Of a stretch of 64,000 bases of DNA, positions 23,580 through 41,652 are shown piece after piece. Within the stretch, counting starts at the first letter, position 1, and the number at the start of each line of letters is the position of its first letter. The notes beneath the pieces are model-generated. The model did no database searches. It was not told where the DNA came from and was given only the letters and a program-made list of their open reading frames with translations. The translations under genes were made by a program, and so were the position numbers. Source of the DNA: Escherichia phage UE-S1; the sequence record ON568341.1. One strand, given 5' to 3'.

Positions 23580-23607
23580 TTGCACAGTACTGAAAAAAGC
23601 GTATAAT
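23580..23607 (+). promoter_or_regulatory. early sigma70-type promoter
   Basis: TTGCAC, 16 nt spacer, TATAAT(23602-23607); GTTTTACATC start region then 5' hairpin. Confidence 0.55.
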
Positions 23608-23661
23608 GTTTTACATCGAGAGCGGGAACACTTCCCTACTCACTTTTAAGAGATTAAAACG

Positions 23662-24024
23662 ATGGCGACTCAAATCACTAAAATCATTGCTAACCTGGTT
23701 AACTTCCGCGACGATATGAAAGATCTTCCGGCGGCAACGGTTAAAACTCACATTGACGCATACCGCGAACTGATTAAAATGTTGCCGCTTAAGCGTGAAC
23801 AATACGCCGCTAAACTGATGCTTGATGCGATGATCCATAAGATGATCGCCAGTGATTTGACGATGGTTTATCAGTATATGGGCGAAAATTTCGCGGTGTA
23901 TAGTAAACCAGTACCAGGAATGGAAAGTACAGAAGTATTACACGGTTTAAATTTAAAACAAGATGCATGGGATAATATGCCTCGTTTCCTGGTATGGGCT
24001 GACAGTGGCAAAATTTACGAATAA
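23662..24024 (+). CDS. hypothetical early protein (120 aa)
   Basis: ORF after promoter + leader hairpin; AAGAGA SD-like. Confidence 0.55.
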   Translation: MATQITKIIANLVNFRDDMKDLPAATVKTHIDAYRELIKMLPLKREQYAAKLMLDAMIHKMIASDLTMVYQYMGENFAVYSKPVPGMESTEVLHGLNLKQDAWDNMPRFLVWADSGKIYE

Positions 24025-24037
24025 GTTAAAAATTAGT

Positions 24038-24065
24038 TTGACAGTACTGAATAAAAGCGTATAAT
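24038..24065 (+). promoter_or_regulatory. early sigma70-type promoter
   Basis: TTGACA(24038-24043), 16 nt spacer, TATAAT(24060-24065). Confidence 0.55.
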
Positions 24066-24116
24066 GTTTTACATCAGGTGGGGAATAGTTCCCCACTATA
24101 TAAGAGGATTAAAAAA

Positions 24117-24356
24117 ATGGCTAAATCAAAAATGTTCTTAGGTCACAAAAACAAAACTCATTGGAATGTAAGCCTGTGGATTAATAACGATGAGGGATTG
24201 TATCGGTTGGCCCTGGACTTTATTGCCGCCCATACTAATCGCAATGATGCGGCCCGTCATATGATGTTATTTTTAGAACAGACTGGACAAGATAAAACAC
24301 CGGACGGATTCAAATATAGCACTACTGCGATCCGTGCGGCGATGGTTGGAATGTAA
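24117..24356 (+). CDS. hypothetical early protein (79 aa)
   Basis: ATG 24117 after AAGAGGA SD; paralog of 26157..26396 (KNKTHWNVSLWINN..TPDGFKYSTTAIRAAMVGM). Confidence 0.55.
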   Translation: MAKSKMFLGHKNKTHWNVSLWINNDEGLYRLALDFIAAHTNRNDAARHMMLFLEQTGQDKTPDGFKYSTTAIRAAMVGM

Positions 24357-24442
24357 TAGAATTTATTTAAAGTACTATCATTTTTTTGCGATAGTACTTT
24401 ATAATAGTGTTTTATTCATACACCAACGATAAGGGCAACAGC

Positions 24443-24709
24443 ATGAATATTAAGTATTTTGCGACGCGTGAACAAGCTCGGATCGCCGCACGCCAGGACG
24501 GGGCAACGTTTAAAGATATGGGCGTACAATCGGAACGTGGTAAACGTTGGGCCATTGTAAAGCGTAGTACCGCCAGATCATTACAGTACTGGTTAGCGGC
24601 CTTAAAAAGTCCCGATAGTGTATCGCGTCGAGTGGTAGAAATAAAGCTCGACCGAAAGGGCAACCGCGTGACTGTGTACCGTACTAAAAAGATTGCAGTA
24701 CTTGAATAA
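24443..24709 (+). CDS. hypothetical early protein (88 aa)
   Basis: ATG 24443; paralog of 36151..36546 (FATREQARIAARQ..DRKGNRVTVY). Confidence 0.5.
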   Translation: MNIKYFATREQARIAARQDGATFKDMGVQSERGKRWAIVKRSTARSLQYWLAALKSPDSVSRRVVEIKLDRKGNRVTVYRTKKIAVLE

Positions 24710-24716
24710 AAAGTAC

Positions 24717-24744
24717 TTGCAAACTATGTTTAAAGGCGTATAAT
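24717..24744 (+). promoter_or_regulatory. early sigma70-type promoter
   Basis: TTGCAA(24717-24722), 16 nt spacer, TATAAT(24739-24744); leader hairpin GCGGGAACTCTTCCCGC. Confidence 0.55.
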
Positions 24745-24796
24745 GTTTTACATCGAGAGCGGGAACTCTTCCCGCCTATAACCTGGAGTAATAAAA

Positions 24797-25027
24797 ATGA
24801 CTAATATGTATATGACTGAAGTTAAAACCGTAAAAGATACTACCACGAATAAAACTACTTACTTACAGCGGATCTGTGGTGTATGGCAACGTATCAGCAA
24901 ATCAAAGTACTTTAAATTAACATCATATGCAAACCGTTCGGATTCATTCAGTACTGAAATAAAAGGTAATAAAGTACACCAATACGGCACTTATTATTAT
25001 TACAGCCTGGACGCGATTGCAGTATAA
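24797..25027 (+). CDS. hypothetical early protein (76 aa)
   Basis: ORF after promoter/hairpin; GGAG SD. Confidence 0.5.
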   Translation: MTNMYMTEVKTVKDTTTNKTTYLQRICGVWQRISKSKYFKLTSYANRSDSFSTEIKGNKVHQYGTYYYYSLDAIAV

Positions 25028-25278
25028 TCATATTTTTTGAAAAATTTACAATTGCCGGTATTGACTTATTTTGTCAGTACTGGCATAATGTATTCATTGG
25101 CAGATAAGCCGTAGCCCATAGGGTGCGGGAGTGTATCTATAGAAAAATTAGTTTAGTATAGTTACAATTGTGCACCCGGTGGGTTAGCTGTTGTCATGGG
25201 GTATATTATGCCAGTACTTGATAATGCTGTCAATACTTTTTTTACTATTCAGTACTGAAAACTATTTTTAAAAAGTAC

Positions 25279-25306
25279 TTGCTAACTATGTTTAAAGGCG
25301 TATAAT
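25279..25306 (+). promoter_or_regulatory. early promoter (upstream of tandem promoter pair)
   Basis: TTGCTA, 16 nt spacer, TATAAT(25301-25306). Confidence 0.5.
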
Positions 25307-25400
25307 GTTTTACATCAGGACGGGGAACGAAATAAGTAACCCCGTTAAGTAGTCCAGGAGTAAGACATACGAAAAACTCCCCTGATAAAATAGTTTGACA
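25301..25400. repeat. 100-bp exact repeat (copy 1) carrying structured leader
   Basis: Appears identical by eye to 35214..35313. Confidence 0.7.
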
Positions 25401-25422
25401 AATGTTTTTAAAAGCGTATAAT
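25395..25422 (+). promoter_or_regulatory. early promoter (downstream of tandem promoter pair)
   Basis: TTGACA(25395-25400), 16 nt spacer, TATAAT(25417-25422). Confidence 0.5.
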
Positions 25423-25454
25423 ACTTACATCAACTACTGAATGAGGGTTACAAA

Positions 25455-26066
25455 ATGAAAACTATCACTACTACTACTTTTGTTATGGCTTTTTCTGAAC
25501 TGAACGCAGAACAAAAAACGGCGGCTATCGAACTGGTTCGGGATCGTGAGCGTTCATGTGAGGATAATTTCTTTGCTGAGGGCGTTATCGAGTACTATAA
25601 AGAAACAGTACTACCAGAATACGGCATAGATGAAGCTGAATTGCAATACAGTGGTTTTTGGTCGCAAGGTGACGGTGCATCAATCAGTACTGACAGCGTG
25701 GACGCGGAGAAGTTTTTACGCAAGATTAAAGCGTTAACGAAATATCGTTCTATCCGTCACTTGTTGAATGAAGATGATTTGGCAATGAGTGTAGAACGTT
25801 CACACTCTCGCTACGCACACGAAAACACGGTAAGCGGTTGCGTTGATACTCGCTACACTGATTTAACTGTAAAACAAGCGGCACTTGCTGATGACCTGGA
25901 AAACTTACTGACTGATGCGATCCGTGAATTATCTCGTAAGTTGTACCGTGATTTAGAGAATGCATATGAGGATCAATTCACTACTGAAAACATTACTGCA
26001 CTGATTGAGGGTAACGAATATCAATTCAATGTTATTGATGGCGTAGTGGAATCAATCGAATATTAA
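25455..26066 (+). CDS. hypothetical early protein (203 aa)
   Basis: ORF after dual promoters; GAGGG SD. Confidence 0.55.
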   Translation: MKTITTTTFVMAFSELNAEQKTAAIELVRDRERSCEDNFFAEGVIEYYKETVLPEYGIDEAELQYSGFWSQGDGASISTDSVDAEKFLRKIKALTKYRSIRHLLNEDDLAMSVERSHSRYAHENTVSGCVDTRYTDLTVKQAALADDLENLLTDAIRELSRKLYRDLENAYEDQFTTENITALIEGNEYQFNVIDGVVESIEY

Positions 26067-26078
26067 TTCAAAAAGTAC

Positions 26079-26106
26079 TTGTAAACTAAGTTTAAAAGCG
26101 TATAAT
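26079..26106 (+). promoter_or_regulatory. early sigma70-type promoter
   Basis: TTGTAA, 16 nt spacer, TATAAT(26101-26106); hairpin GCGGGGAGTGGTTCCCCGC. Confidence 0.5.
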
Positions 26107-26156
26107 ACTTTACATCAAGGCGGGGAGTGGTTCCCCGCTCAAACGAGGATTTAAAA

Positions 26157-26396
26157 ATGGCTAGTACTAAAACTTACAACGGACACAAAAACAAAACTCA
26201 TTGGAATGTAAGCCTTTGGATTAATAACGGTGAGTCATTGTATCGGCTTGCACAAAGTTGCATCGCACAAAGTAGAACTAAAGATATTGCTGCGGAATGT
26301 ATGTACCGCAGATTAAAAGCCAACGGTACTACTACAACACCGGACGGATTCAAATATAGCACTACTGCGATCCGTGCTGCAATGGTTGGAATGTAA
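26157..26396 (+). CDS. hypothetical early protein (79 aa)
   Basis: ATG 26157 after ACGAGGA SD; paralog of 24117..24356. Confidence 0.55.
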   Translation: MASTKTYNGHKNKTHWNVSLWINNGESLYRLAQSCIAQSRTKDIAAECMYRRLKANGTTTTPDGFKYSTTAIRAAMVGM

Positions 26397-26453
26397 TATT
26401 CAGTACTGAGATAATGGCGGGTAATAGTTCCCGCCTTTACTGAGGGTTATCTA

Positions 26454-26714
26454 ATGAGTAAAGTAATTAGCTATACAGCACTAAGCAAGACATTATCTAT
26501 TAGCCAGTGCACCGATGGTTATTGGCTATTTGATGAAACGCGTGGCATGAATTTAGCCATGCGTGCAAAAACTGCTGAGGCGGCGTATCTTGAAGCATTG
26601 GAATACTACCAGGAACGTTTAAAGGAAGTAGAAGAAGATTATAAAAGCCTCAAAGCGAAAGTAGATCATTTCGTCGGTCAATTCATCGAGGAAGACGACG
26701 ACAAACAATATTGA
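26454..26714 (+). CDS. hypothetical early protein (86 aa)
   Basis: ORF with GAGGG SD. Confidence 0.5.
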   Translation: MSKVISYTALSKTLSISQCTDGYWLFDETRGMNLAMRAKTAEAAYLEALEYYQERLKEVEEDYKSLKAKVDHFVGQFIEEDDDKQY

Positions 26715-26722
26715 AAAAGTAC

Positions 26723-26750
26723 TTGCAATTAGTTTTCAGTACTGTATAAT
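26723..26750 (+). promoter_or_regulatory. early sigma70-type promoter
   Basis: TTGCAA(26723-26728), 16 nt spacer, TGTATAAT(26743-26750). Confidence 0.55.
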
Positions 26751-26800
26751 GGTTTACATCAAAGGGAGAAATGGTTCTCCCTGGTAATGAGGAAAATAAA

Positions 26801-27022
26801 ATGGCTAATATCACTACTCTTTCCCAACTGGAAGCACTGGTGAAATCTATGCGGGAACATGCCGACAAAATCGGCGTACAAGATCCAGCCGTTTGCTTCT
26901 GCGACGAATTGAATGATGATACACTGGTAATAGCAGAAGTCCAGGACGTTTCTAACTATTCCTCGCGTTACACTGGCGGCGTAGCAAATAAAGGCGACTT
27001 CTGTTTATACCTTACAAAATAA
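26801..27022 (+). CDS. hypothetical early protein (73 aa)
   Basis: ATG 26801 after TGAGGAAA SD and leader hairpin GGGAGAAATGGTTCTCCC. Confidence 0.5.
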   Translation: MANITTLSQLEALVKSMREHADKIGVQDPAVCFCDELNDDTLVIAEVQDVSNYSSRYTGGVANKGDFCLYLTK

Positions 27023-27190
27023 CAACGCGGGGAGATAATAACTCCCCGTTACTTTTTCAGTACTGAATCATTTAATAGACGGATCTCGGCACCCGGTGGG
27101 TTAGTGACTGTTTCGTCTTGATGTAGTAATTATGCCAGTACTGGATGCACTTGTCAACAACTATTTTTCAAATACTTTTTATTAAAATAC

Positions 27191-27218
27191 TTGCAATTAG
27201 TTTTTAAACGCGTATAAT
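27191..27218 (+). promoter_or_regulatory. early sigma70-type promoter
   Basis: TTGCAA(27191-27196), 16 nt spacer, TATAAT(27213-27218). Confidence 0.55.
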
Positions 27219-27265
27219 GTTTTGCATAGGGGGAGCGGTTCCCCTGGTAACTAAGGAATAAGAAA

Positions 27266-27502
27266 ATGCTCGAACAAATCAAATCAACGTCTGCGAATGT
27301 AACGGGAACTGTATCACACTTTACTAGTGATGAATCGCGTGGTGTTCCTTATTGTGCTGTACATGTAAACACTGATGGCAACTACTGGTTTACGGTTTAC
27401 GGATCATATTCATTTGGTCGGCCAGGACATCAAAAAATCCTGGATAAAGTACAGCCAACGGGTAAAAATATCACTGCTGAAATGTTTTATAAAAAATCAT
27501 AA
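27266..27502 (+). CDS. hypothetical early protein (78 aa)
   Basis: ORF after leader hairpin GGGGGAGCGGTTCCCC; AAGGAA SD. Confidence 0.5.
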   Translation: MLEQIKSTSANVTGTVSHFTSDESRGVPYCAVHVNTDGNYWFTVYGSYSFGRPGHQKILDKVQPTGKNITAEMFYKKS

Positions 27503-27507
27503 AGTAC

Positions 27508-27535
27508 TTGATAATAGTTTTTAGTACTGTATAAT
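27508..27535 (+). promoter_or_regulatory. early sigma70-type promoter
   Basis: TTGATA, 16 nt spacer, TGTATAAT(27528-27535). Confidence 0.5.
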
Positions 27536-27586
27536 ATTTTACATCGCAAGGGGGAGCGGTTCCCCCTGGTAACTAAGGATAATAAA

Positions 27587-27886
27587 ATGAAAATTGCAAT
27601 CATCGCCCTGGCTTTATCTGTTTCCTCTTTCGCTGTTAATGCGTCATTAGATGTAAGTAGTGAAAAATTCATTCAGTGCACTGTTGCAATGACCGATGAA
27701 AGTACTGGCGAGATTGTATTAAAGGATTTAGAGATCCAGCCGGAAGCATTTAAAAACGGCCCGTTCCATGAAGAAGACGAAAACGGTAGCACATCAATTT
27801 ATTATGATGCCAGTACTAAACGCGGTTCGGTCACTGTAATGGATACTGAGAAAGTAACGCATACCGGCGTTATTAATTGCCGTTGA
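27587..27886 (+). CDS. small secreted/periplasmic protein (signal peptide)
   Basis: N-term MKIAIIALALSVSSFAVNA-S resembles Sec signal peptide with AxA cleavage site. Confidence 0.5.
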   Translation: MKIAIIALALSVSSFAVNASLDVSSEKFIQCTVAMTDESTGEIVLKDLEIQPEAFKNGPFHEEDENGSTSIYYDASTKRGSVTVMDTEKVTHTGVINCR

Positions 27887-27907
27887 TAGATACTACGGGG
27901 TAACATC

Positions 27908-28138
27908 ATGACTAAGCGAATTGTTTTACTTAACGAAAGCAGTACTACACAACTACTTAACGCCGTGCATTATGATATTGAAACGAGCGTTAATCTTATC
28001 AGTACTGTAGTACTGTTGGACACTGGAAAGGTCGCCAATGATAAAGCGATTGCAGGTATATTAACGGATCTTGAGCCTGGTAGCAGTGCACCAATAACGT
28101 TAAATGGTAAAGTGTTTAATATTTTACTCACTGATTAA
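27908..28138 (+). CDS. hypothetical early protein (76 aa)
   Basis: ORF with GGGG SD-like; followed by terminator. Confidence 0.45.
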   Translation: MTKRIVLLNESSTTQLLNAVHYDIETSVNLISTVVLLDTGKVANDKAIAGILTDLEPGSSAPITLNGKVFNILLTD

Positions 28139-28144
28139 GTACAT

Positions 28145-28166
28145 AGCCCACCTGGTGGGCTTTTTT
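28145..28166 (+). terminator. intrinsic terminator
   Basis: AGCCCACCTGGTGGGCT hairpin + TTTTTT. Confidence 0.6.
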
Positions 28167-28220
28167 GTTTTTGTAGTATCGTAGTACTGAGATACTTTGA
28201 AAATAGTTTTAAGAAAGTAG

Positions 28221-28248
28221 TTGACATTACCGCAGAAAAGCGTAGAAT
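28221..28248 (+). promoter_or_regulatory. early sigma70-type promoter
   Basis: TTGACA(28221-28226), 16 nt spacer, TAGAAT; followed by ~120 nt structured leader. Confidence 0.45.
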
Positions 28249-28371
28249 GTATTACATCAAGACGGGGAGCACTAAGTAGACCGCCAGTAAGTCGAACGAA
28301 AAACTGGACACGTCGAGAAAACTTTGATACACTAATAAACGTAAACTAAACTTTAATTGAGGATTTATAAA

Positions 28372-28854
28372 ATGGCTAATGTAAAATCATTTCTGAAAGC
28401 ACTGATTTCTAACGACACTGCTATTGCGGCTGAATTGCTGGCGGATCTGGATAGCGATACCATGAAAGCAGTACGCAACAATTTTAACATTGCGTACAGT
28501 GAAGCTAAAGAACTGCAAGCCAAAAAGATAGCAGAACTGGAAGAACAGAAAAAAGCCCGTGAAGAAGAACTACAAGCAACGATTGAAAGTATTCAGGCGG
28601 CGGTTGCAGGGTTGGATCTGGAAGTAGTTATTGAAATGGCACATAAAGCACTGGCAGTTAAGTACGGGGAAGATAAGCCAGTAACTAAACCTAAAAAATG
28701 GATTCAGGAACGCGTAACGGTTGTTCTTGATAATGGCGAGGAACATTTAATTCCCGTGCGTGGTAACTGCATTGCGGTAGTTCTGGATGCTATCAAAGAA
28801 AGCGGATTGACTCGCGAGGAATGGATCGAAGCTCACCGCAAAATTGAAGCATAA
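28372..28854 (+). CDS. hypothetical early protein (160 aa)
   Basis: ATG 28372 after TGAGGA SD; track ORF 28357 trimmed. Confidence 0.5.
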   Translation: MANVKSFLKALISNDTAIAAELLADLDSDTMKAVRNNFNIAYSEAKELQAKKIAELEEQKKAREEELQATIESIQAAVAGLDLEVVIEMAHKALAVKYGEDKPVTKPKKWIQERVTVVLDNGEEHLIPVRGNCIAVVLDAIKESGLTREEWIEAHRKIEA

Positions 28855-28875
28855 CAATTAAAGTACTGAATCACT

Positions 28876-28902
28876 AGCCCACTTCTTATAGTGGGCTTTT
28901 TT
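28876..28902 (+). terminator. intrinsic terminator
   Basis: AGCCCAC-ttcttata-GTGGGCT hairpin + TTTTTT. Confidence 0.6.
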
Positions 28903-29129
28903 GTGTTTATCGTTTACCAGTCCACTAGCACCGCCTAGAATCGATTCTAACGCATTAAACTGATTATCTGATGAATAGCCCTAGCTGGTGGCGTTAATGC
29001 CGTTAGAAAGCGATTGAGGACGTTTAAAGTATTTTGCAAAAAGTAATAAAAAGTACTTGCACGATTAAGAGATTAGAGTATAATTAATTACATCAAGACA
29101 AGACACCTTAACTAACTGAGGATATAAAG

Positions 29130-29282
29130 ATGAATACTTATGAACTGGATTGTTTCACTTTACAAGTAATGTCAGTATGCAGTAAAAAAGATTGGTCATC
29201 AAAGGAATTTAAAGCAGTTATTGCGTGTGCAAAACACGGCAAGACTATCAATGAAACGGCATCAATCATTGATAAACTTTAA
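29130..29282 (+). CDS. small early protein (50 aa)
   Basis: TGAGGA SD; preceded by TTGCAC..TATAAT promoter; under ORF-track cutoff. Confidence 0.4.
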   Translation: MNTYELDCFTLQVMSVCSKKDWSSKEFKAVIACAKHGKTINETASIIDKL

Positions 29283-29290
29283 AAAATAGT

Positions 29291-29319
29291 TTGACAATAG
29301 TTTTAAGTACTGCGATAAT
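29291..29319 (+). promoter_or_regulatory. early sigma70-type promoter
   Basis: TTGACA(29291-29296), 17 nt spacer, GATAAT. Confidence 0.45.
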
Positions 29320-29354
29320 ACATACATCAACTACTGAATAGGAATAAAAAAACA

Positions 29355-29582
29355 ATGGCTATCATCATTACTTACGTATCTGGTACTACTGGCACTGCTT
29401 CAACTGTTGCTGTAATTACTAATAAGAAAGGAGCGGAATTACATTTTGCAATGGATAATTGGGCCGTGAAGGAGTTCGGACCGTGGGCAAGTGTAGCATA
29501 CATTGAAACCTATCAAGTGCCATCGATTAGCTTAACTGATTTAGGTGTAGATCGAATCTTATGCCTGGATGAATTAATTTAA
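29355..29582 (+). CDS. hypothetical early protein (75 aa)
   Basis: ORF downstream of promoter; weak SD. Confidence 0.45.
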   Translation: MAIIITYVSGTTGTASTVAVITNKKGAELHFAMDNWAVKEFGPWASVAYIETYQVPSISLTDLGVDRILCLDELI

Positions 29583-29668
29583 AAAAGTACTTGCAAAGTA
29601 AATCGAATAAAGTATAATACATTACATCAAGGGGAGAAAATGGTTCTCCCCACTAAGAGGAAACTAAT

Positions 29669-29812: not shown

Positions 29813-29893
29813 AAATATTATCACAGTACTATTGACATAGATTGATAGTACTGGCATAATAGATTTTATCAAGACAACTAAGAGGAAATTAAA

Positions 29894-35644: not shown

Positions 35645-35731
35645 GTATTGACAAAGTATCTTAGTACTGTATAATAGTTTACATCAAGCGAGGGGAATGG
35701 TTCCCCTCCTAACAAAGAGAGAGAAATAAAA

Positions 35732-36055
35732 ATGGCTATGATCCTTACCCAGAAAGTAGAACTGAAAATTGTAACCTCCTTTGACATTAAAGTTAATCGG
35801 TGGACTGATAGCCACGGCAATACTTACCACTCCTGCTACGTGTCCGCATTGATTGGTGATCGCTGGGAAGACCTGGGACACGAAACCTTTACATACGGTT
35901 ACGGCACACAAGGCGAGTACACGGGTTTAGAAATCATTAAGGAAACTGTAATAGGTTTCAACCCGAAAGAGAAAGTACTACACAGAATTGAGAAAGAGAT
36001 CAACAAAGAAATTACAGTTCGCTACTACGATGTAAAACGTAAGAAAGACATGTAA
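35732..36055 (+). CDS. hypothetical early protein (107 aa)
   Basis: AGAGAGAGAAA SD after hairpin; paralog of 29894..30238. Confidence 0.55.
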   Translation: MAMILTQKVELKIVTSFDIKVNRWTDSHGNTYHSCYVSALIGDRWEDLGHETFTYGYGTQGEYTGLEIIKETVIGFNPKEKVLHRIEKEINKEITVRYYDVKRKKDM

Positions 36056-36150
36056 TAGAATCCATTTAAAGTACTATTTGACATTGCCCAGATAGTACTT
36101 TATAATAGACTCTAACTTGTAGTACTAACTCAACTAATAGGATGTATACC

Positions 36151-36546
36151 ATGATTACTAAATTCTACGCTACCCGTGAAGCTGCCCGTATTGTTGCACG
36201 CGAGGAAGGAGCAGCATTTAAAGACATGGGCAAAGATGCAACGAAAGGTCAACGCTGGGCCGTACAGTTCAAAGAAATCTCTGATATTGTGAATTCACCT
36301 GAGCCAGTACTGACAGCAGCAGAACTAAAACGAGCGGATATGCTGGCGGCAATACTTGACGCACAAGATGAGTTTATCGCTGACTCTGATATCAAAGTAC
36401 AGGTAAACCACACCGCATGGACTCACGCGGATCACCTGGCAAACCTTAAGCGTCCAAGTGAACTGATTCGCAACCAGAAAGAGATCCGACATGATCGTAA
36501 GGGTAATCGTGTAACAGTATACAGTAAACGCCGCCAGGTTATCTAA
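36151..36546 (+). CDS. hypothetical early protein (131 aa)
   Basis: ATG 36151 after AGGA; paralog of 24443..24709; followed by hairpin GGCGGGA..TCCCGCC + T-run. Confidence 0.55.
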   Translation: MITKFYATREAARIVAREEGAAFKDMGKDATKGQRWAVQFKEISDIVNSPEPVLTAAELKRADMLAAILDAQDEFIADSDIKVQVNHTAWTHADHLANLKRPSELIRNQKEIRHDRKGNRVTVYSKRRQVI

Positions 36547-36607
36547 TAACTTGCAGTACTAACAACACGGCGGGATCAGTTCCCGCCTTTTTTATAGGAC
36601 AAACAAA

Positions 36608-36862
36608 ATGATTAAGGTTCAACTATATAAAGATAACATCTTACGGGTACACTATAAAGCACCTCAGAGAATCATCACAAAGGCCGTACAGCTTGCTAAT
36701 GAGTTTATTAATGGTAACCTATTACCTAGGAAGTTAAGCAACGGAAAACTGCGTGTAATCGACGTGGACACTAACAACAGGATAGTAATCGAGAACACAG
36801 GAAAAATAAACCTATATGAACACCAACAATACAATAAGAAAATAAAACTAATATCACGTTGA
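36608..36862 (+). CDS. hypothetical early protein (84 aa)
   Basis: ORF with AGGA SD-like. Confidence 0.45.
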   Translation: MIKVQLYKDNILRVHYKAPQRIITKAVQLANEFINGNLLPRKLSNGKLRVIDVDTNNRIVIENTGKINLYEHQQYNKKIKLISR

Positions 36863-36915
36863 CAGTACTCAAATGTTTTAGTATTATGTACACATACCAA
36901 CACGGGAGAAACAAA

Positions 36916-37134
36916 ATGAAATTATCTAAAATCGAAAAGAAAACTATTGATGAAGCAGTTAAGCACGGTTATACCTTTCGTAATGATTCACATTTTACCA
37001 ATTTTCAACAGGGGTATCGTACTATTAAAAAACTAATTGACAAAGGTTTATTAGTTGAAGTCAATAATGGGAACGGTATCGAGTATCAGCCAACCCAAGA
37101 CGCATTATCTTTAAAGAAATATAATATTATCTAA
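36916..37134 (+). CDS. hypothetical early protein (72 aa)
   Basis: ATG 36916 after GGGAGAAA; promoter TTGACA(36860)..TATTAT upstream. Confidence 0.5.
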   Translation: MKLSKIEKKTIDEAVKHGYTFRNDSHFTNFQQGYRTIKKLIDKGLLVEVNNGNGIEYQPTQDALSLKKYNII

Positions 37135-37191
37135 TTGACAGTACTCAAATGTTTTAGTACTATATGTACATACCAACACGGGGGAAACAAA

Positions 37192-37434
37192 ATGATTACT
37201 TTAGAAAAACGTATCAAAGAAACTACATCGCTGGTGGAACTGTTAACAGTACTCAAATGTAAAACAACACCATTTAGCACGCCGGACTTTATTAATATGG
37301 TTGATGTTAATGGTCGCTATCGTATCACGGTCGAACAAGGAGCGGCGAAAGTATTCAGTACTAAAAACACGAAGGAAGTGATCCACGCCGTTAATGTTAA
37401 AAAAGTAGTTGCCATTGATAGTAAAGTACTGTAA
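37192..37434 (+). CDS. hypothetical early protein (80 aa)
   Basis: ATG 37192 after GGGGGAAA; promoter/leader duplicated from 36859-36915. Confidence 0.5.
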   Translation: MITLEKRIKETTSLVELLTVLKCKTTPFSTPDFINMVDVNGRYRITVEQGAAKVFSTKNTKEVIHAVNVKKVVAIDSKVL

Positions 37435-37465
37435 TATAGTTTCATTAACTCAAGGAGAACATGCA

Positions 37466-38050
37466 ATGCGTAATTATACTAAATTCATCCGTACACTGTC
37501 AGAAATGGAAACCAACAAAGAGATCCTTTCAGCTTGTCGGTTAGCTGGCCTGGAGATCATCGGTGCTGGTTCTTCCCGTATAGTTTTCGCTTTAAATGAT
37601 CGGTTAGTGATTAAGGTCGCGAATTGTGATGCGGGTGTAGAACAAAATGAAACTGAATGTAAGGTATGGAATTTTTTAGACTATGACCGCCCTCAGTTGA
37701 AACAGTACTTTGCAAAGGTGCATATGCATTTATGCGATCCTGATAATATGTTTATCGTTATGGATCGGTTGAGTACTGCAAGCAAAGGTAGTGTGAAGCA
37801 CGTAAACGCGTGCAATGAATTAAAGTACAATATTAAACGTAATGCAATCGAACGCCATCACCGCTTTGCTGATGCACTACAACACGTCGATGATACATTA
37901 TCAACACTAACGATAAGAGATATCAGAAAACAGAATATCGGCCAGGATCGTAATGGCCTTATTAAAGTACTTGATTACGGTTTAACCTGCAATATCTGGA
38001 ATCAGTACTATAAAAAGCGTGATGTGGCAGCAAGTAAGGTAACACGATAA
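37466..38050 (+). CDS. protein-kinase-like protein (194 aa)
   Basis: G-loop-like GAGSSRIVF, VIKVA lysine motif, RDIRKQNIG catalytic-loop-like, KVLDYG DFG-like; AAGGAGAA SD. Confidence 0.55.
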   Translation: MRNYTKFIRTLSEMETNKEILSACRLAGLEIIGAGSSRIVFALNDRLVIKVANCDAGVEQNETECKVWNFLDYDRPQLKQYFAKVHMHLCDPDNMFIVMDRLSTASKGSVKHVNACNELKYNIKRNAIERHHRFADALQHVDDTLSTLTIRDIRKQNIGQDRNGLIKVLDYGLTCNIWNQYYKKRDVAASKVTR

Positions 38051-38067
38051 AAAAGATTAAAAAAGGG

Positions 38068-38105
38068 ATTGACTCCGGTCAGTCCCTTTGCTATTATATA
38101 TCCAT
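38068..38105 (+). terminator. terminator hairpin with embedded promoter (composite element)
   Basis: AAAAAAGGGATTGACTCCGGTCAGTCCCTTTGCTATTATATA. Confidence 0.55.
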
Positions 38106-38191
38106 TGAGAGATAACTCACTGACCCATAGGGTGCGGAAGTGTATCTATTATATAAGTATTCAGTACTGAAAACTATTTTTAAAAAAGTAC

Positions 38192-38219
38192 TTGCAAACT
38201 ATCTCAATGAGCGTATAAT
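38192..38219 (+). promoter_or_regulatory. early sigma70-type promoter
   Basis: TTGCAA(38192-38197), 16 nt spacer, TATAAT(38214-38219). Confidence 0.55.
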
Positions 38220-38274
38220 GTTTTATATCGAGAGGGGGAAATGGTTCTCCCTAGTACTAAAAGGAATCAAGACG

Positions 38275-38496
38275 ATGACTACTATGACCTGCGTTCACGC
38301 TTCAAATCTTCTGAATGATGCAGCATTTAAAGCAGGTGAAGAATATCAATGCTATCGGGATGAAAATAAAAAAGTTTTTGTAGTTGATAATAATGGTTTC
38401 CATATTGAATTACAATCCGGCTTCACTGGTTTAAATGGTAAATCAGTATGGGGCGTACAGGATGATAAAGGTACATATCATTTTAAACGTAATTAA
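38275..38496 (+). CDS. hypothetical early protein (73 aa)
   Basis: ATG 38275 after AAAAGGAAT SD and leader hairpin GGGGGAAATGGTTCTCCC. Confidence 0.5.
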   Translation: MTTMTCVHASNLLNDAAFKAGEEYQCYRDENKKVFVVDNNGFHIELQSGFTGLNGKSVWGVQDDKGTYHFKRN

Positions 38497-38577
38497 GTAT
38501 TGACAAAGTATATCAGTACTGTATAATAGTTTACATCAAGGGGAGAATGGTTCTCCCCACTAAAAGGAAACAAAATT

Positions 38578-38850
38578 ATGTCCAGCTACTCCGCTACTAT
38601 GATCATTAAAGATATGAACGGTAATCCTACTTCTGCTGGTGGATCATTTGGAAACATTAATTTAGATGGTCGGTTATCCATGCAATCAGCCATCGATGCA
38701 GCGAAAGAAGTTTTTAAGAATGAATGTACTGTTAGTAAGCTGGATTATATGGGTTTCGCTATCGAGAAAACTACTCGTTTTGTGAACTACAAAAATCCAC
38801 TGATGATTGATACTAACCTGAAAGCTAACGAAGTGGGGTACTTATTATGA
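38578..38850 (+). CDS. hypothetical early protein (90 aa)
   Basis: AAAAGGAAA SD after hairpin; promoter TTGACA..TGTATAAT. Confidence 0.55.
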   Translation: MSSYSATMIIKDMNGNPTSAGGSFGNINLDGRLSMQSAIDAAKEVFKNECTVSKLDYMGFAIEKTTRFVNYKNPLMIDTNLKANEVGYLL

Positions 38851-39038
38851 CAGTAGAAGAAGTAAAAAAAGTACTGGCAGTACTACGATATCATAATCAT
38901 TGCAAGGTGAAGAATGATCCTGATTATCTTGATTCATCCCTGGAGGAAGACACCTTGAACGCTATAAGCCATATGCAGACATTAGCAAAGCGTATGACTG
39001 AAAAGAACATGCCGGACTATATCGGAAATAAAATTTAA
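38847..39038 (+). CDS. hypothetical early protein (63 aa)
   Basis: ATGA overlap with previous gene. Confidence 0.45.
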   Translation: MTVEEVKKVLAVLRYHNHCKVKNDPDYLDSSLEEDTLNAISHMQTLAKRMTEKNMPDYIGNKI

Positions 39039-39124
39039 AAAGTACTTGCATTGTAGTTAGATTAACGTATAATGTTTTATATCGAGAGGGGAAATGGTTT
39101 CCCCTCAAGTCCAGGAGATACACC

Positions 39125-39388
39125 ATGAACACTATCGAAATCACTATCAATGCACACGTATACGACAACGTAGTACTGCAAACTACTATGACCGCCAATG
39201 ATACCAGTACTTTGCGGAATACTGTTATTAGTGCTGTATGTGCCGCTATCGGTGATGTATCCCTGGAAAATTCAGAACACATCAACAACGGTTTCACTAT
39301 GTGCAAACGTGATAACGCAAAACATATCATCGTGGAAGGTTACGGCGGTGTAGAATTTAATGTTTATATGAAAAAAGTACTTGCATAA
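39125..39388 (+). CDS. hypothetical early protein (87 aa)
   Basis: CAGGAGA SD after hairpin GGGGAAATGGTTTCCCC. Confidence 0.5.
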   Translation: MNTIEITINAHVYDNVVLQTTMTANDTSTLRNTVISAVCAAIGDVSLENSEHINNGFTMCKRDNAKHIIVEGYGGVEFNVYMKKVLA

Positions 39389-39455
39389 TAACTAAAACAA
39401 AGTATAATGTTTTGCATAGGGGGAGATATCCTCCCCCACTAAAAGGAGTAATAAA

Positions 39456-39680
39456 ATGGCTAACTTTGATGAACTGATGCGGGAAGTAGCTTACCTGGCA
39501 GAAGAGAAGAAATCATTCGATTCTATCTATAACACCGCTCACCGTGATTCAGTACTGGCATGTAACCAGGATCAAAAAGATGAACTAATCGCCACCTATC
39601 ATGAAGCATGGAAGTACTACCGACAATGGGAGAAAGAAGAAAGTGAGTCTACCATTGACGGCCTCAATAATCTAATCTAA
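39456..39680 (+). CDS. hypothetical early protein (74 aa)
   Basis: AAAAGGAG SD after hairpin GGGGGAGATATCCTCCCCC. Confidence 0.5.
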   Translation: MANFDELMREVAYLAEEKKSFDSIYNTAHRDSVLACNQDQKDELIATYHEAWKYYRQWEKEESESTIDGLNNLI

Positions 39681-39756
39681 AAGTTTTATTTCAGTACTAT
39701 TGACATAGCTTGATAGTACTGATGTAATAACTTTACTAACTACAAGGGGAAACATA

Positions 39757-40014
39757 ATGGATCAATTCACACAATATCGGGTAAATCCTCAAGCTATGGC
39801 CTACGTAGAAGACCATAAAACGTTACCAGTACTGCAACCAGTTAAAGGCCGTATCTATCGTGGCCTTGCCTGGGATACGGCCCAGGATGGATATAAAACC
39901 GTCGCCGTGGGTATGTATTGCGGTGATGGTGAATGGTTTGATCCAAATAATCCGGTATCCATTGACAGTACTGAAAAAATGAAATGGGCCGACTACATCG
40001 AAGATATTTCATAA
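39757..40014 (+). CDS. hypothetical early protein (85 aa)
   Basis: AAGGGGAAA SD; promoter TTGACA..GATGTAAT. Confidence 0.5.
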   Translation: MDQFTQYRVNPQAMAYVEDHKTLPVLQPVKGRIYRGLAWDTAQDGYKTVAVGMYCGDGEWFDPNNPVSIDSTEKMKWADYIEDIS

Positions 40015-40104
40015 AAACTATTTGACAGTACTAACCAGTAATGTATAATGTTTTACATAGAGCGGGGGAATAGTTCTCCCGCCAATAGTTTGGAGTAAAA
40101 CATT

Positions 40105-40305
40105 ATGTCTATCGCTATCGCCCTGGTTGAAGTACTGAAAGAAGCTAAAGCCAACCTTATCGACGTAAAGATCCAGGAACTACAAAACGGCTTAATCGGC
40201 TGTACTTGTACCGCTGGTGGAGCGGCAGACTATCGAGAACACGAATCACTCGAATCACTGGTTCGGTATCTTACCATGATCGTTGATGATTGGAGAATCA
40301 TCTAA
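40105..40305 (+). CDS. hypothetical early protein (66 aa)
   Basis: TGGAG SD after hairpin GCGGGGGAATAGTTCTCCCGC. Confidence 0.5.
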   Translation: MSIAIALVEVLKEAKANLIDVKIQELQNGLIGCTCTAGGAADYREHESLESLVRYLTMIVDDWRII

Positions 40306-40322
40306 CAAAAAAGAATAAAAAA

Positions 40323-40360
40323 AGGGATTGACTCCGGTCAGTCCCTTTGCTATTATATAC
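40323..40360 (+). terminator. terminator hairpin with embedded promoter (composite element)
   Basis: AAAAAAAGGGATTGACTCCGGTCAGTCCCTTTGCTATTATATA. Confidence 0.55.
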
Positions 40361-40550
40361 GCATAGACAAAAACTAGCCCACAGGGTGCATAGGTGTATC
40401 CAAAATATATAGTTAATAACGGTGAGTAACTATCTGCTGGTGGAACTAAAACTATTAATAAAAAAGTATTGACAAAGTATATCAGTACTGCAATAATGTA
40501 TCTCGTAGGGCGGCAATGGTGCGACGGCCCACAAAGTTAGGAGATTCACC

Positions 40551-40883
40551 ATGAGTACTTCAATCGCTATCGTTAAAGCTTTCATCCGTACTAATGTTTC
40601 CTCTGTATTCATCGACGGCCTCGACCGTAACGTAGAATACTCAATCATTATCGCACAAACGGCAAACGGTTCTCGGTACATCCTGAATGATAGTGAAGCA
40701 AATCACTACTACTTCACTAAAGCCACTGGCTTTAAACGCATCGATGCTGATGTAGTATACGCTAAGATGAATAAGCTGGTAGACAAGATTAACGCGAAAG
40801 GTACTATCGATTTACAGTACTGGACCGAAACCGATCCAGAATATGGATCTCACCGCTACCTGAATCCAGGTATCAAAATGTAA
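40551..40883 (+). CDS. hypothetical early protein (110 aa)
   Basis: TAGGAGA SD; promoter TTGACA(40470)..TGCAATAAT. Confidence 0.5.
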   Translation: MSTSIAIVKAFIRTNVSSVFIDGLDRNVEYSIIIAQTANGSRYILNDSEANHYYFTKATGFKRIDADVVYAKMNKLVDKINAKGTIDLQYWTETDPEYGSHRYLNPGIKM

Positions 40884-40972
40884 AAAGTACTTGCATAGTA
40901 CTTAGATTCATGTATAATGTTTTACATAGAGAGGGGGAAATGGTTCTCCCTCCTAAATTAAGGAGTTTTATC

Positions 40973-41374
40973 ATGACCTTCTCAATCACTTCCTTCGCTG
41001 ACGTTTTAGTACTGGCCCGGACTTTTGGTAAAGCTGGCCTTGAGCACGCTGTAAGTAATGGTCATATGCACCCTGAATATTGCCGCATCATCGGTAGCTG
41101 CAAACGTTGGGCCGTGTCCCGTAACATTGAGATTGAAAACTTCAATGACGGCAACAACGAATATACAGTTGATGCAGTATTCGAAGCCGTTGATCTCGGC
41201 GGTATCTATAACACTAACCTGAATGATGTGCGTATCGTTCGCACGGGGTTCGGTGCTTATGATGTATCTATCCGTGAAGCTATGGACAAGGGATACATTA
41301 GCAAGGACCAGTTAGCTTACATCATGCAGCAAACTAAGGAACGTAACGAAGCACGTACTATCTTAGGGTTGTAA
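40973..41374 (+). CDS. hypothetical early protein (133 aa)
   Basis: ATG 40973 after TAAGGAG SD and hairpin GAGGGGGAAATGGTTCTCCCTCC. Confidence 0.55.
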   Translation: MTFSITSFADVLVLARTFGKAGLEHAVSNGHMHPEYCRIIGSCKRWAVSRNIEIENFNDGNNEYTVDAVFEAVDLGGIYNTNLNDVRIVRTGFGAYDVSIREAMDKGYISKDQLAYIMQQTKERNEARTILGL

Positions 41375-41442
41375 GCGTTACACATCACCAAACATCATAG
41401 GCCGCCTTGTAGCGGCCTTAACTATATCAGGAGTTCATACAC

Positions 41443-41652
41443 ATGAACTATACAGTATACAGCGTTCTAGGCACTATTGCAGGCGTACATGATAACGTCG
41501 ATGGTGCTATGCGTACAGTACTGCAACAGGTTCCACTAAAGCCTAAGACCATTAAGCAGATGACAGCACGACTAACCAGGGCGACGGCTGGCGTGGAAGT
41601 ATGGCAGGACTATGGGGATACACAGATAATCGTAAGCGTAACGAAGGATTAA
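41443..41652 (+). CDS. hypothetical protein (69 aa)
   Basis: CAGGAG SD; last gene of higher-GC block. Confidence 0.5.
   Translation: MNYTVYSVLGTIAGVHDNVDGAMRTVLQQVPLKPKTIKQMTARLTRATAGVEVWQDYGDTQIIVSVTKD

Follow-up and report, generated by a model that had tools for sequence, protein, structure and literature searches.

A proposed portable unit of strong host-type promoter, RNA hairpin and ribosome site precedes nearly half of about 50 tiny early genes in the terminal repeat of a giant Escherichia coli phage

The cassettes known as PeSLs (promoter-early stem-loops) have been reported from the phages RB49/phi1/JSE, PST and nt-1 (Arbiol et al. 2010, PMC2839356; Comeau et al. 2014, PMC4122927). 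In the published examples, the stem-loop lies 5' of the transcription start and terminates or attenuates transcription arriving from upstream (PMC2839356, PMC4122927). Here we describe a variant of these T4-like shuffling cassettes, undescribed so far, in a 64-kb stretch of Escherichia phage UE-S1 (ON568341.1; hereafter the window, to which all coordinates refer). The source phage is an Asteriusvirus (PBECO4/121Q-like) jumbo coliphage, and the early-gene block at 23580–41652 is its direct terminal repeat (DTR). Positions 1 and 20993 of the fEgEco12 record correspond, in a mapping between records, to positions 21923 and 41804 of the window; the fEgEco12 DTR is confirmed by PhageTerm and by restriction (PMC13070987), and the same region is labelled DTR in the annotations of relatives. 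By analogy with other DTR phages, the block would serve as an immediate-early region transcribed by the host sigma-70 RNA polymerase.

Genes, promoters and cassettes of the terminal repeat

The block contains 51 plus-strand ORFs of 29–203 amino acids, among whose products domain matches were found to a DksA-type zinc finger, GNAT, a kinase-like domain, a ParE-like domain and DUFs. A first-pass annotation had described about 48 single-gene units; the block of small early genes is real, but the count is 51. A strict promoter pattern (TTGNNN-N16-18-TA[TGC]AAT) matched 28 plus-strand sites in the block, with a spacer of 16 bp in all except one, and about 39 near-consensus sigma-70 promoters are present once CATAAT, GATAAT and TATAGT are admitted as -10 boxes. 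The promoter scan returned 102 promoter-like sites (63.9 ± 6.7 in shuffles), and the nine sites matching at 12 of 12 positions are all on the plus strand. About 37 of the 51 genes thus have a promoter of their own, and about 12 have none. The first-pass claim that nearly every gene has the hairpin does not stand, as it is seen at 22 promoters, or 23 with one variant (40505–40532), so that 45% of the genes and 59% of the promoters carry it. Overall, the early-block observation is partly confirmed: it is real but overstated.

These 22 promoters (23 with the variant) belong to a cassette of about 85 nt (Table 1). Its 5' part comprises an AT-rich/AGTACT UP region, TTGCAA or TTGACA, a 16-bp spacer, TATAAT, GTTTTAC and a predicted +1 at the A of ATC, and its 3' part a GGGRA..TYCCC stem-loop, 5–8 nt, the SD and the ATG. 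The stem has 5–9 bp (7–9 bp in 20 of 22) and the loop 3–8 nt. Stem onset is 8–17 nt past the -10 box in all 22 cassettes (12–15 nt in most), that is, inside the predicted transcript; the hairpin ends 17–19 nt from the ATG in 16 of 22 (range 12–22), 5–8 nt ahead of the SD. With +1 taken as the A of CAT, 8 nt past the -10 box, a position predicted from sigma-70 geometry only, the unpaired 5' tail before the hairpin has a median length of 5 nt (range 1–10).

A hairpin-less class of 13 promoters has a short, unstructured leader. Median leader length is 44 nt in the hairpin class and 25 nt in the hairpin-less class, and the 16-bp spacer occurs at 21 of 22 hairpin promoters versus 4 of 13 others (Fisher 9e-5). 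Over the first 34 nt, 23 of the 39 leaders reach an MFE of -10 kcal/mol or lower, far more than chance would give, since only 1.8% of 34-nt windows overall do so (binomial 3e-30). Mean MFE is -12.9 kcal/mol in the hairpin class and -1.1 kcal/mol in the hairpin-less class. One class thus combines a 16-bp spacer with the hairpin, the other a 17-bp spacer with an extended -10 and no hairpin, and the two probably mark sets of early messages that are handled differently.

Table 1. Coordinates of cassettes and other elements in the window
Feature	Position	Strand	Hairpin	Details
DTR, ~19.9 kb	21923–41804	+		encloses entire early block
Cassette g23662	23580–23664	+	23624–23636	promoter 23580–23607; weak hairpin, MFE -7.7; ATG 23662; stronger hairpin in orthologues (AGCGGGAAcacTTCCCGCT)
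Cassette g24117	24038–24119	+	24077–24097	TTGACA-16-TATAAT; ATG 24117
Cassette g24797	24717–24799	+	24759–24775	hairpin GCGGGAActcTTCCCGC
Cassette g26157	26079–26159	+	26119–26139	synteny break 26159
Cassette g26801	26723–26803	+	26763–26782	breaks 26698–26710 and 26760
Cassette g27266	27191–27268	+	27227–27246	
Cassette g27587	27508–27589	+	27549–27567	
Cassette g29669	29591–29671	+	29631–29651	entire cassette 85% identical to Vequintavirinae phage W70
Cassette g31091	31012–31093	+	31052–31071	
Cassette g31319	31241–31321	+	31281–31300	
Cassette g31917	31838–31919	+	31879–31897	
Cassette g32359	32273–32361	+	32318–32337	hairpin GGGAAGTAacagTACTTCCC; five different hairpins among orthologues
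Cassette g34151	34076–34153	+	34115–34133	TTGCAT-17-TATAGT
Cassette g34425	34348–34427	+	34388–34407	breaks 34339 and 34419–34430
Cassette g34724	34645–34726	+	34686–34702	
Cassette g35732	35648–35734	+	35690–35708	breaks 35631 and 35738
Cassette g38275	38192–38277	+	38233–38252	internal G.U
Cassette g38578	38500–38580	+	38540–38558	break 38495
Cassette g39125	39046–39127	+	39086–39106	
Cassette g39456	39381–39458	+	39419–39437	
Cassette g40105	40022–40107	+	40062–40082	internal G.U
Cassette g40973	40891–40975	+	40931–40952	internal G.U
Variant cassette g40551	40469–40553	+	40505–40532	TTGACA-17-AATAAT; different, imperfect hairpin
ORF-less unit, copy 1	25279–25394	+		cassette-type promoter, ~72-nt structured leader, then second promoter; MFE -22.8
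ORF-less unit, copy 2	35192–35307	+		near-identical to copy 1; MFE -22.0
Promoter-less hairpin	26416–26435	+	26416–26435	GGCGGG..CCCGCC; 18 nt 5' of ATG 26454
Hairpin-less promoter (example)	29832–29896	+		TTGACA-17-TGgCATAAT; short leader
Further hairpin-less promoters	29291, 32591, 32861, 39700			
Canonical intrinsic terminator	36569–36593	+	36569–36593	hairpin plus T6; 20 nt ahead of ATG 36608
Other intrinsic terminators	27027–27058, 28145–28170, 28876–28905			

Conservation of the leader stem-loop

On the plus strand of the window, a GGG..CCC hairpin scan found 32 hairpins, 29 of them inside the block, and all matches of a covariance model built from the cassette hairpins are confined to 24073–40956. 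Both sides have changed at 6 of the 9 stem pairs (exceeded in 0 of 500 shuffles) and 91% of cells are paired, against at most 72% with the partner slid, in a covariation seed that was selected for pairing and whose paralogous and orthologous copies are non-independent. The stem is kept in all 92 distinct hairpin leaders from seven phages, with loops (tgg, tag, cgg, atgg, atga, acatc and others) and upper stems varying freely. Internal mismatches comprise 10 G.T versus 1 A.C, a G.U count that, with non-independent copies, reflects about 5–6 loci. This pattern of compensatory substitution shows a stem-loop under selection for sense-strand pairing.

In 37 orthologue groups from the seven phages, the hairpin is always present in 22, never in 12 and mixed in 3; its sequence is swapped among orthologues while its presence stays gene-specific. 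Hairpins at the same position, with different stems, are found in the DTR of the Klebsiella Alcyoneusvirus phage Muenster and in the phages W70 (rV5-like, with which 12 of the 51 DTR proteins are shared) and muut (phi92-like), and the stem keeps its GGGRA..TYCCC base from genus to genus. It has to be considered whether the hairpin is just a functionless passenger of one ancestral cassette that spread by repeated duplication. The paralogy of the cassettes is clear, their promoter parts having a mean pairwise identity of 63% (up to 88%) compared with 28% for the adjoining ORF starts. However, the pairing survives many substitutions, other genera have different stems, and per-gene presence is stable across the seven phages despite sequence turnover, so that such hitch-hiking, already disfavoured, is most improbable.

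The hairpin could alternatively matter as a DNA palindrome, by promoting recombination or template switching, by forming a cruciform or by binding a dimeric protein near +10 to +30, the RNA fold being incidental. The stems are indeed near-perfect palindromes that score on both strands, one orthologue carries a loop inversion (tag to cta) typical of palindrome mutation, and crossovers at PeSLs have been located within the stem-loop or adjacent to it (PMC2839356). Yet the asymmetry of G.T over A.C favours the sense strand, plus-strand stems exceed minus-strand stems in length at several loci, and the hairpin keeps a fixed position with respect to both transcription start and ATG. Nor would a dimeric DNA-binding protein tolerate stems of differing sequence and half-sites whose spacing varies by up to 5 bp. 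A role at the DNA level is thus very unlikely.

Cassette shuffling and the comparison with PeSLs

The PeSL likeness noted in the first pass is sound as an analogy. Both units comprise an AT-rich UP region, a near-consensus sigma-70 early promoter, a G-run/loop/C-run stem with G-T pairs, an SD and an ATG; both occur in many copies in a hypervariable region, beside small ORFs whose function is not known, and in both, close relatives differ by indels and replacements whose junctions lie at cassettes. Here, synteny breakpoints against close relatives map to the cassette edges marked in Table 1 and to those at 29098/29349, 36835/36919 and 37117/37195, although intergenic breakpoints would also result from selection for intact ORFs alone. 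Where phAPEC6 has a single cassette, the window has gene 29130 and a second promoter inserted between its -10 box and its ATG. Whole cassettes are also shared between phage families, as with g29669 and W70 (Table 1). The UP/-35 (AAAAGTAGTTGACA) and the CATCGA start of the cassette resemble those of the JSE PeSL, and a homologue of the g40973 gene in the RB49-like phage JSE stands behind a true PeSL whose UP/-35 and CATCGA start are the same. Membership, by contrast, fails because the stem-loop is part of the transcribed leader and lacks a U-tract. The PeSL stem precedes the -35/-10 boxes, falls between them or overlaps them, or lies shortly ahead of the start site, whereas here it is wholly 3' of the predicted +1; the cassettes described here also belong to a Rak2-like jumbo phage and lie in its terminal repeat. 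The true PeSL layout, with the stem over the -35, also occurs in the window, at 1790, 3074, 31698, 35055, 38062 and 40321.

A PeSL-type insulator would attenuate or terminate polymerase coming from upstream units, so that each small gene would be transcribed chiefly from its own promoter, and polymerase initiated 5 nt upstream would pass the stem. Read-through is to be expected, since canonical terminators are few in the block. The RB49/phi1 PeSL stems share the G-run/C-run composition, one of them having reduced lacZ as strongly as rrnB T1 (PMC2839356), and JSE PeSL stems likewise have no obvious U-tract. But no U-tract follows any of the 22 stems (0–3 T in the following 8 nt), none was flagged as a plus-strand terminator, and the phage has canonical hairpin-plus-T-run terminators where they are needed (27027, 28145, 28876 and 36569). 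The hairpin is also found where there is no read-through to stop, on the first DTR gene and right after terminators, and the stem would also act on its own transcript. Insulation is therefore unlikely, as is a terminator role in general because the stem-loop is wholly downstream of the predicted +1.

Proposed role of the hairpin and known leader elements

Since it is present on the first DTR gene and at promoters directly after canonical terminators, the hairpin appears to act on its own transcript. It is not required for expression as such, because 13 promoters lack one, and the free variation of loops and upper stems favours a role based on structure rather than on specific sequence. From these patterns we infer that the leader hairpin affects mRNA fate. 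Folding in the nascent leader RNA, it would be a cis-acting element setting the fate of early messages: its compact 5' end may slow 5'-end-dependent decay or, alternatively, may provide a stable 5' boundary once read-through transcripts are cut in AU-rich promoter sequence, and the A-rich SD region would be left unpaired. The whole cassette would be a portable expression unit, its conserved ~60–90 nt giving homology for ORF insertion, deletion and swapping, like PeSLs in T4-like phages. Taken as a whole (a DTR early block, a selected leader hairpin setting mRNA fate and a portable, shuffled cassette), this explanation is the best we have and is tentative, its chances falling slightly short of even.

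The predicted 5-nt single-stranded tail weakens the classical 5'-terminal stabiliser idea; Emory, Bouvet and Belasco reportedly found in 1992 that protection by a 5'-terminal stem-loop needs 2–4 nt or fewer unpaired. The scanning-block form of that idea is removed by the finding that a simple orthogonal stem-loop is readily bypassed by scanning RNase E (PMC9943677).

Recognition in trans has also been weighed, with a phage or host RNA-binding protein, endonuclease or antiterminator binding the hairpin and about 23 genes forming a co-regulated regulon that is jointly shut off, processed or made termination-resistant. Such an operator would fit the gene-by-gene conservation of presence and absence, tied to one promoter class, the stem base kept across genera and several very basic small early proteins in the block (for example g31558, 45 aa, Lys-rich). 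It is nonetheless quite unlikely, given loops (3–8 nt) and upper stems that vary freely, unlike boxB, MS2 or RegA-type sites, and given that domain searches of the 51 block proteins yielded neither an RNA-binding nor a nuclease domain and that there is no Rfam match.

Lambda-type nut/boxB sites resemble the cassette in having a small G/C hairpin transcribed shortly after an early promoter, but the cassette hairpins have no conserved GNRA-like pentaloop, no N-like protein was identified, and there is one copy per promoter at 22 promoters instead of one per operon. The pre-early/early regions in the T5-like and Rak2-like (CBB, PA5oct) DTRs, which are 10–22 kb in length, share the dense strong sigma-70 promoters and small host-takeover ORFs (PMC5259590) and the ORF-less transcripts (PMC7318152); the hairpin-less promoter class resembles the T5 N25 type, and descriptions of these DTRs report no leader hairpin (PMC5259590, PMC7318152). 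The ompA-type 5' stem-loops of E. coli and synthetic 5' stabilisers likewise place a short stable hairpin near the 5' end, followed by an unstructured ribosome-binding region; they differ in an unpaired tail of 0–4 nt, versus about 5 nt predicted here, and the element described here is multi-copy and cassette-borne.

The early block within the terminal repeat

The early-gene block at 23580-41652 lies in a mosaic region, because its best relatives match it partially and in pieces. With 23580-33580 as the megablast query, 199 phage records were matched, the best being Asteriusvirus jumbo phages of Escherichia (ph0011, SHEFM2K, WPEC5, phAPEC6, SP27 and fEgEco12; 91-95% identity), which span just 37-73% of the query in 5-12 pieces. 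Six relatives were fetched for local alignment with the window, and positions 1 and 20993 of the fEgEco12 record fell at window 21923 and 41804, respectively. The fEgEco12 genome has a 20,993-bp direct terminal repeat (DTR), confirmed by PhageTerm and restriction digests (PMC13070987), and the homologous stretch is annotated as a terminal repeat in vB_Ec-M-J and in the Klebsiella phages Muenster and fENko-Kae01. By alignment, the block is the gene-bearing part of the ~19.9-kb DTR, which explains its sharp edges. Upstream of it, at the left genome end, lie 1.7 kb of non-coding DNA (21923-23580) without an ORF, carrying repeats that resemble CTAGA(C/T)GG (22640-22830), a 43-bp direct repeat (copies at 23453-23496 and 23507-23549) and three CCCAYNGGGTGC units, all possibly packaging or ejection-related signals. 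A search for tandem repeats at the DTR left end returned trivial ones only, and no tRNAs were found in the block. Just past the DTR, at 41872-43700 and beyond, is a tightly packed array of overlapping ~65-75-aa paralogues that have a common G-T-N-Y-Q-E motif, are labelled phrog_4148 in the relatives' annotation and lack individual promoters.

The block holds 51 curated + strand ORFs of 29-203 aa. Pfam matches among their products comprise a DksA/TraR zinc finger, GNAT, kinase-like and ParE-like domains and DUF7249 (carried by two ORFs), and the recognisable domains fit a host-takeover set. A strict regular expression found 28 + strand promoters. Their spacer is 16 bp in all cases except one, and GTTTTACATC comes next in most; admitting CATAAT, GATAAT and TATAGT as -10 boxes raised the number to ~39. 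The promoter scan returned 102 promoter-like sites, compared with 63.9 +/- 6.7 in shuffles, and nine perfect 12/12 matches, every one on the + strand. Cassettes combine a TTGACA/TTGCAA-16-TATAAT promoter, with upstream region AAAAAGTAC, with a leader stem-loop, a Shine-Dalgarno sequence (SD) and ATG. The first-pass annotation had assigned such a unit to nearly every gene, which is wrong: the cassette serves 45% of the genes, the leader is short and unstructured at 13 promoters, and ~12 genes lack their own promoter.

With 257 copies in 64 kb, the motif AGTACT is 12-fold as frequent as the zero-order expectation (21.6); its density is 20-31 copies per 4 kb over 20-40 kb compared with 3-16 elsewhere. 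Copies of the motif sit in promoter spacers, in UP regions and also within ORFs; 65 of the 117 in the block lie within its non-coding 28%, and CAGTACTG makes up 68 of the 257. AGTACT could be a binding or modification motif.

Ten ORF-less units have a single layout, consisting of a strong promoter, ~25 nt and the conserved motif CCCAYNGGGTGC(R)(R)RAGTGTATC (9 matches versus 0.34 expected); some are oriented face to face. A folded small RNA was rejected for these units, as RNAalifold gave just a 4-bp CCC/GGG helix and no covariation. In the related phage PA5oct, highly transcribed non-coding RNAs come from the DTR (PMC7318152). A separate near-identical pair of promoter-driven, ORF-less predicted transcripts has 5' and 3' ends that pair (AUCAGGACGGGG...CUCCCCUGAU); each may be a small structured RNA, and in both cases another promoter with an unrelated gene comes directly after it.

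Coordinates of cassette-related features, ORF-less units and synteny breaks in the window
Feature	Coordinates	Strand	Remark
Variant hairpin, different and imperfect	40505-40532	+	Same position in cassette; counted beyond the 22
Early proteins with recognisable domains	33394-33651, 33716-34072, 37466-38050, and one ParE-like ORF		DksA/TraR-type zinc finger, GNAT acetyltransferase, protein-kinase-like protein, ParE-like toxin domain
CCCAYNGGGTGC ORF-less units	25061-25160, 31698-31800, 35055-35150, 38062-38165, 40321-40415, 23100-23215	+	
CCCAYNGGGTGC ORF-less units	23095-22985, 23310-23205, 25245-25145, 27170-27062	-	
ORF-less ~72-nt predicted transcripts, near-identical pair	25279-25394 and 35192-35307	+	Promoter-driven; MFE -22.8 and -22.0 kcal/mol
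Genuine PeSL layout, before genes	1790 and 3074		12-13-bp stem around -35 TTGACT
Genuine PeSL layout, before ORF-less units	31698, 35055, 38062, 40321	+	12-13-bp stem around -35 TTGACT
Synteny breaks at cassette features	26159, 26698-26710, 26760, 27589, 29098, 29349, 29878, 31231, 34339, 34419-34430, 35631, 35738, 36835, 36919, 37117, 37195, 38495		Versus six relatives
Breaks away from cassettes	30161, 30770-30803, 33383-33395, 27480		Only about four

Anatomy and pairing of the leader hairpin

A scan of the 64-kb window found 32 GGG..CCC hairpins on the + strand, 29 of them inside the block, and 22 stand directly 3' of a promoter and 5' of an SD. Their stems (GGGRA..TYCCC) are 5-9 bp long, mostly 7-9, and for all 22 the distance from the -10 box to the stem is 8-17 nt, mostly 12-15, which places the stem ~5 nt past the predicted start site (+1). 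The unpaired 5' tail has a predicted median of 5 nt (range 1-10) on the assumption that transcription starts at the A of CAT, eight nucleotides past the -10 box. The SD follows the stem by 5-8 nt and the ATG follows the hairpin by 17-19 nt in most (range 12-22), a distance also found at the promoter-less hairpins 26416, 30600 and 36569. That the leaders fold, as the first-pass annotation had it, holds for 23 of 39, which reach an MFE of -10 kcal/mol or lower in 34 nt (1.8% of all windows do; binomial ~3e-30), and does not hold for the 13 promoters with unstructured leaders. Mean MFE over the first 40 nt is -12.9 kcal/mol for hairpin leaders and -1.1 for the hairpin-less class, with median leader lengths of 44 and 25 nt, respectively.

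Hairpin presence is tied to promoter class: 21 of the 22 hairpin promoters have a 16-bp spacer, compared with 4 of the 13 others (Fisher 9e-5), and most hairpin-less promoters read TTGACA-17-TGgCATAAT, with AGATTTTATCAA as their leader. Plain MAFFT put the stems out of register, and an equal-length seed set with a covariance model was used instead. Within the window, matches to this model were confined to 24073-40956. One more copy of the element is at 28-85. An E-value scan of 20000-44000 against Rfam gave no relevant match, just a chance Trp_leader (E = 0.7).

The copies differ in their stems yet stay paired (GGGGAGAA/TTCTCCCC, GCGGGAA/TTCCCGC, GGGAAGTA/TACTTCCC and GGGGGAG/CTCCCCC). In the 19-sequence seed, 6 of 9 stem pairs have changes on both sides, none of 500 shuffles reached the observed values, and pairing falls from 91% to at most 72% when the 3' partner is slid; these seed-based tests overstate the case, because the seeds were picked for pairing. 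Among leaders defined by their promoters, in the window and six relatives, there are 92 distinct hairpin sequences, every one with the stem kept. Thirty-seven orthologue groups are represented in four or more of the seven compared genomes; the hairpin is always there in 22 of these groups, never in 12 and mixed in 3, and orthologues often exchange the hairpin sequence itself (g32359, the gene with its ATG at 32359, has five versions). Internal mismatches are G·T in 10 cases and A·C in 1, from ~5-6 independent loci, an excess that is the signature of sense-strand pairing and hence of pairing at the RNA level. Purines make up nearly the whole 5' arm and pyrimidines the entire 3' arm, which fits, as we infer it, a single ancestor with transition-only, G·U-mediated compensation. 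The hairpin at L006 17683 and its orthologue at window 38540-38558 have exactly inverted loops (GGGGAGAAtggTTCTCCCC; ..tag.. versus ..cta..), which marks a template-switch mutation in a palindrome.

In Klebsiella phage Muenster (Alcyoneusvirus), ~35 promoters lie in the DTR, and ~9-11 of them have a leader hairpin in the same place. The stems there are quite different (GGGGATAC.., GAGATTCCAG.., GGGAATGAA.. and GGGAAATTAG..) and keep only the GGGRA/TYCCC base, so function looks structure-based rather than sequence-specific. Two promoter/leader classes, one carrying a selected RNA hairpin, give a defined regulatory grammar to the otherwise anonymous terminal repeats (20 kb) of Rak2-like jumbo phages, and the split provides a simple handle on the stabilization or shut-off of early phage messages.

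Candidate roles of the hairpin

An intrinsic (rho-independent) terminator was rejected, since the 8 nt after each stem hold 0-3 T and none was flagged as terminator-like; canonical terminators stand elsewhere in the block, at 27027, 28145, 28876 and 36569. A read-through barrier as the sole role was rejected as well, as the hairpin is also found on the first DTR gene and at promoters just after terminators. For an anti-SD switch, in which the 3' arm pairs with the SD, the pairings lie on the minus strand, where G·T corresponds to C·A on the sense strand, and this candidate was dropped. Lambda nut/boxB has a conserved 5-bp stem and a GNRA-like pentaloop to which an Arg-rich antiterminator binds; the window loops are variable and 3-8 nt long, and Pfam found no Arg-rich antiterminator among the 51 proteins. 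A sequence-specific protein site is unlikely, judging from loops and upper stems that are free to vary.

The most economical reading, which we hold with modest confidence, is that the hairpin would be a cis-acting leader structure affecting mRNA fate, with the A-rich SD region left open. Stabilizing stem-loops of the ompA type reportedly lie within ~2-4 unpaired nucleotides of the 5' end (attributed to Emory et al. 1992), and the predicted tail, with its 5-nt median, would be longer than such classical 5'-terminal stabilizers allow. A block to RNase E scanning was dropped as an argument, because orthogonal simple stem-loops are readily bypassed by the scanning enzyme (PMC9943677). Tail length and bypass are what keep confidence in a leader structure modest. 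In a variant of it, the hairpin would form a stable 5' boundary for fragments cut from read-through transcripts in AU-rich promoter sequence, which agrees with the constant 17-19-nt spacing between hairpin and ATG. Anatomy, conservation and distribution of the hairpin are observed; its functional steps are all our deductions.

A further proposal, which we regard as improbable, is that a phage factor recognizes the hairpin and ties ~23 immediate-early genes into one post-initiation regulon, spread by cassette exchange to at least three enterobacterial myovirus families. Such a factor might be a nuclease for the early-to-middle switch, repress translation or act as a processive antiterminator; Pfam and PHROGs returned no RNA-binding or nuclease candidate among all 51 proteins. 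If true, the regulon would be common to Rak2-like, rV5-like and phi92-like large virulent enterobacterial myoviruses.

Probable cassette exchange and comparison with PeSLs

Pairwise identity is 63% (up to 88%) for the promoter parts of cassettes and 28% for the adjoining ORF starts. By our tally, ~20 of the 24 distinct breakpoints against the six relatives are no more than ~25 nt from a cassette edge. These breaks map to the hairpin, the -10 box, the ATG or the stop-codon/UP edge. In ph0011, an extra promoter-less ORF lies between the g34151 stop and the next cassette, with a junction within the promoter spacer. The phAPEC6 homologue of g29355 is driven by one hairpin-bearing cassette. The window has two promoters here: the one found in phAPEC6 leads, through a leader lacking the hairpin, to an extra 50-aa gene, after which the second precedes g29355, with junctions at the -10 box and the ATG. 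This break pattern is what PeSL-mediated shuffling predicts (PeSLs being the promoter-early stem-loop cassettes of T4-like phages), although selection for intact ORFs alone also leaves intergenic junctions.

A 96-nt cassette query matched 69 phage records, including Vequintavirinae (W70, A73), Justusliebigvirus (muut, VEcB), Klebsiella Rak2-like phages and Salmonella and Erwinia jumbo phages, and W70 and muut each have several promoter-hairpin-SD units. Of the 51 DTR proteins, W70 has homologues of 12 (within 18 kb), muut of 6 and the Muenster DTR of 19. The g29669 cassette is 85% identical to W70 across promoter, hairpin and ORF, the regulatory ~95 nt being best conserved. The same promoter-hairpin-ORF cassettes circulate among unrelated coliphage families, and as predicted compact, very strong and naturally insulated expression units they may serve phage engineering.

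The leader hairpin is not described in the PeSL, phAPEC6, Asteriusvirus, rV5 or jumbo-phage RNA-seq (Rak2, terminal-repeat) literature searched. For Asteriusvirus, CBB, rV5 and PA5oct, the papers searched report RpoD-like promoters and terminal repeats without the hairpin, and no paper found connects PeSLs with these phages.

As defined in the literature (PMC2839356, PMC4122927), a PeSL has an AT-rich region, a sigma-70-like early promoter and a G-tract/C-tract stem-loop, and its 3' end carries an SD followed by the ATG. The stem-loop can be sited in the AT-rich stretch upstream, at the -35/-10 boxes (between them or over them) or immediately ahead of the start site, and it terminates or attenuates transcription arriving from upstream. 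Indels are mediated by these cassettes, which also give rise to minicircles. Two sites outside the DTR (1790-1827 and 3074-3111), with one gene each, have a 13-bp hairpin (GAAAAGGGTTGACtttgGTCAGCCCTTTTT) enclosing the -35 box of a TTGACT-18-TATAAT promoter, and in four CCCAYNGGGTGC units the -35 box lies within a 12-bp AAAGGG..CCCTTT hairpin, the canonical PeSL layout.

The PeSL resemblance noted in the first-pass annotation stands in part. Like PeSLs, the window cassettes have an AT-rich region with a near-consensus sigma-70-like early promoter, a stable stem-loop whose G tract precedes its C tract, and an SD and start codon at the end. They also lie beside ORFans in a hyperplastic region, at the junctions of indels or replacements between close relatives; selection by itself likewise favours junctions between genes. 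Unlike PeSLs, whose stems are upstream of the transcription start, their stems follow the predicted +1, and they have no U-tract. The homologue of g40973 in the RB49-like phage JSE is preceded by AAAAGTAGTTGACAgcctgaaacGGGGGTAgtaagaTACCCCATCGAAAC.., so its PeSL stem spans the -10 box. The JSE PeSL and the window cassettes are alike in the UP/-35 region and the CATCGA start; the window stem-loop is ~25 nt further downstream and is predicted to be transcribed from its own promoter. The window cassettes are thus PeSL-like as shuffling units but depart from PeSLs in stem position and probably in terminator function. The idea of mobile regulatory cassettes now reaches beyond T4-like phages, here with a stem-loop predicted to be transcribed.
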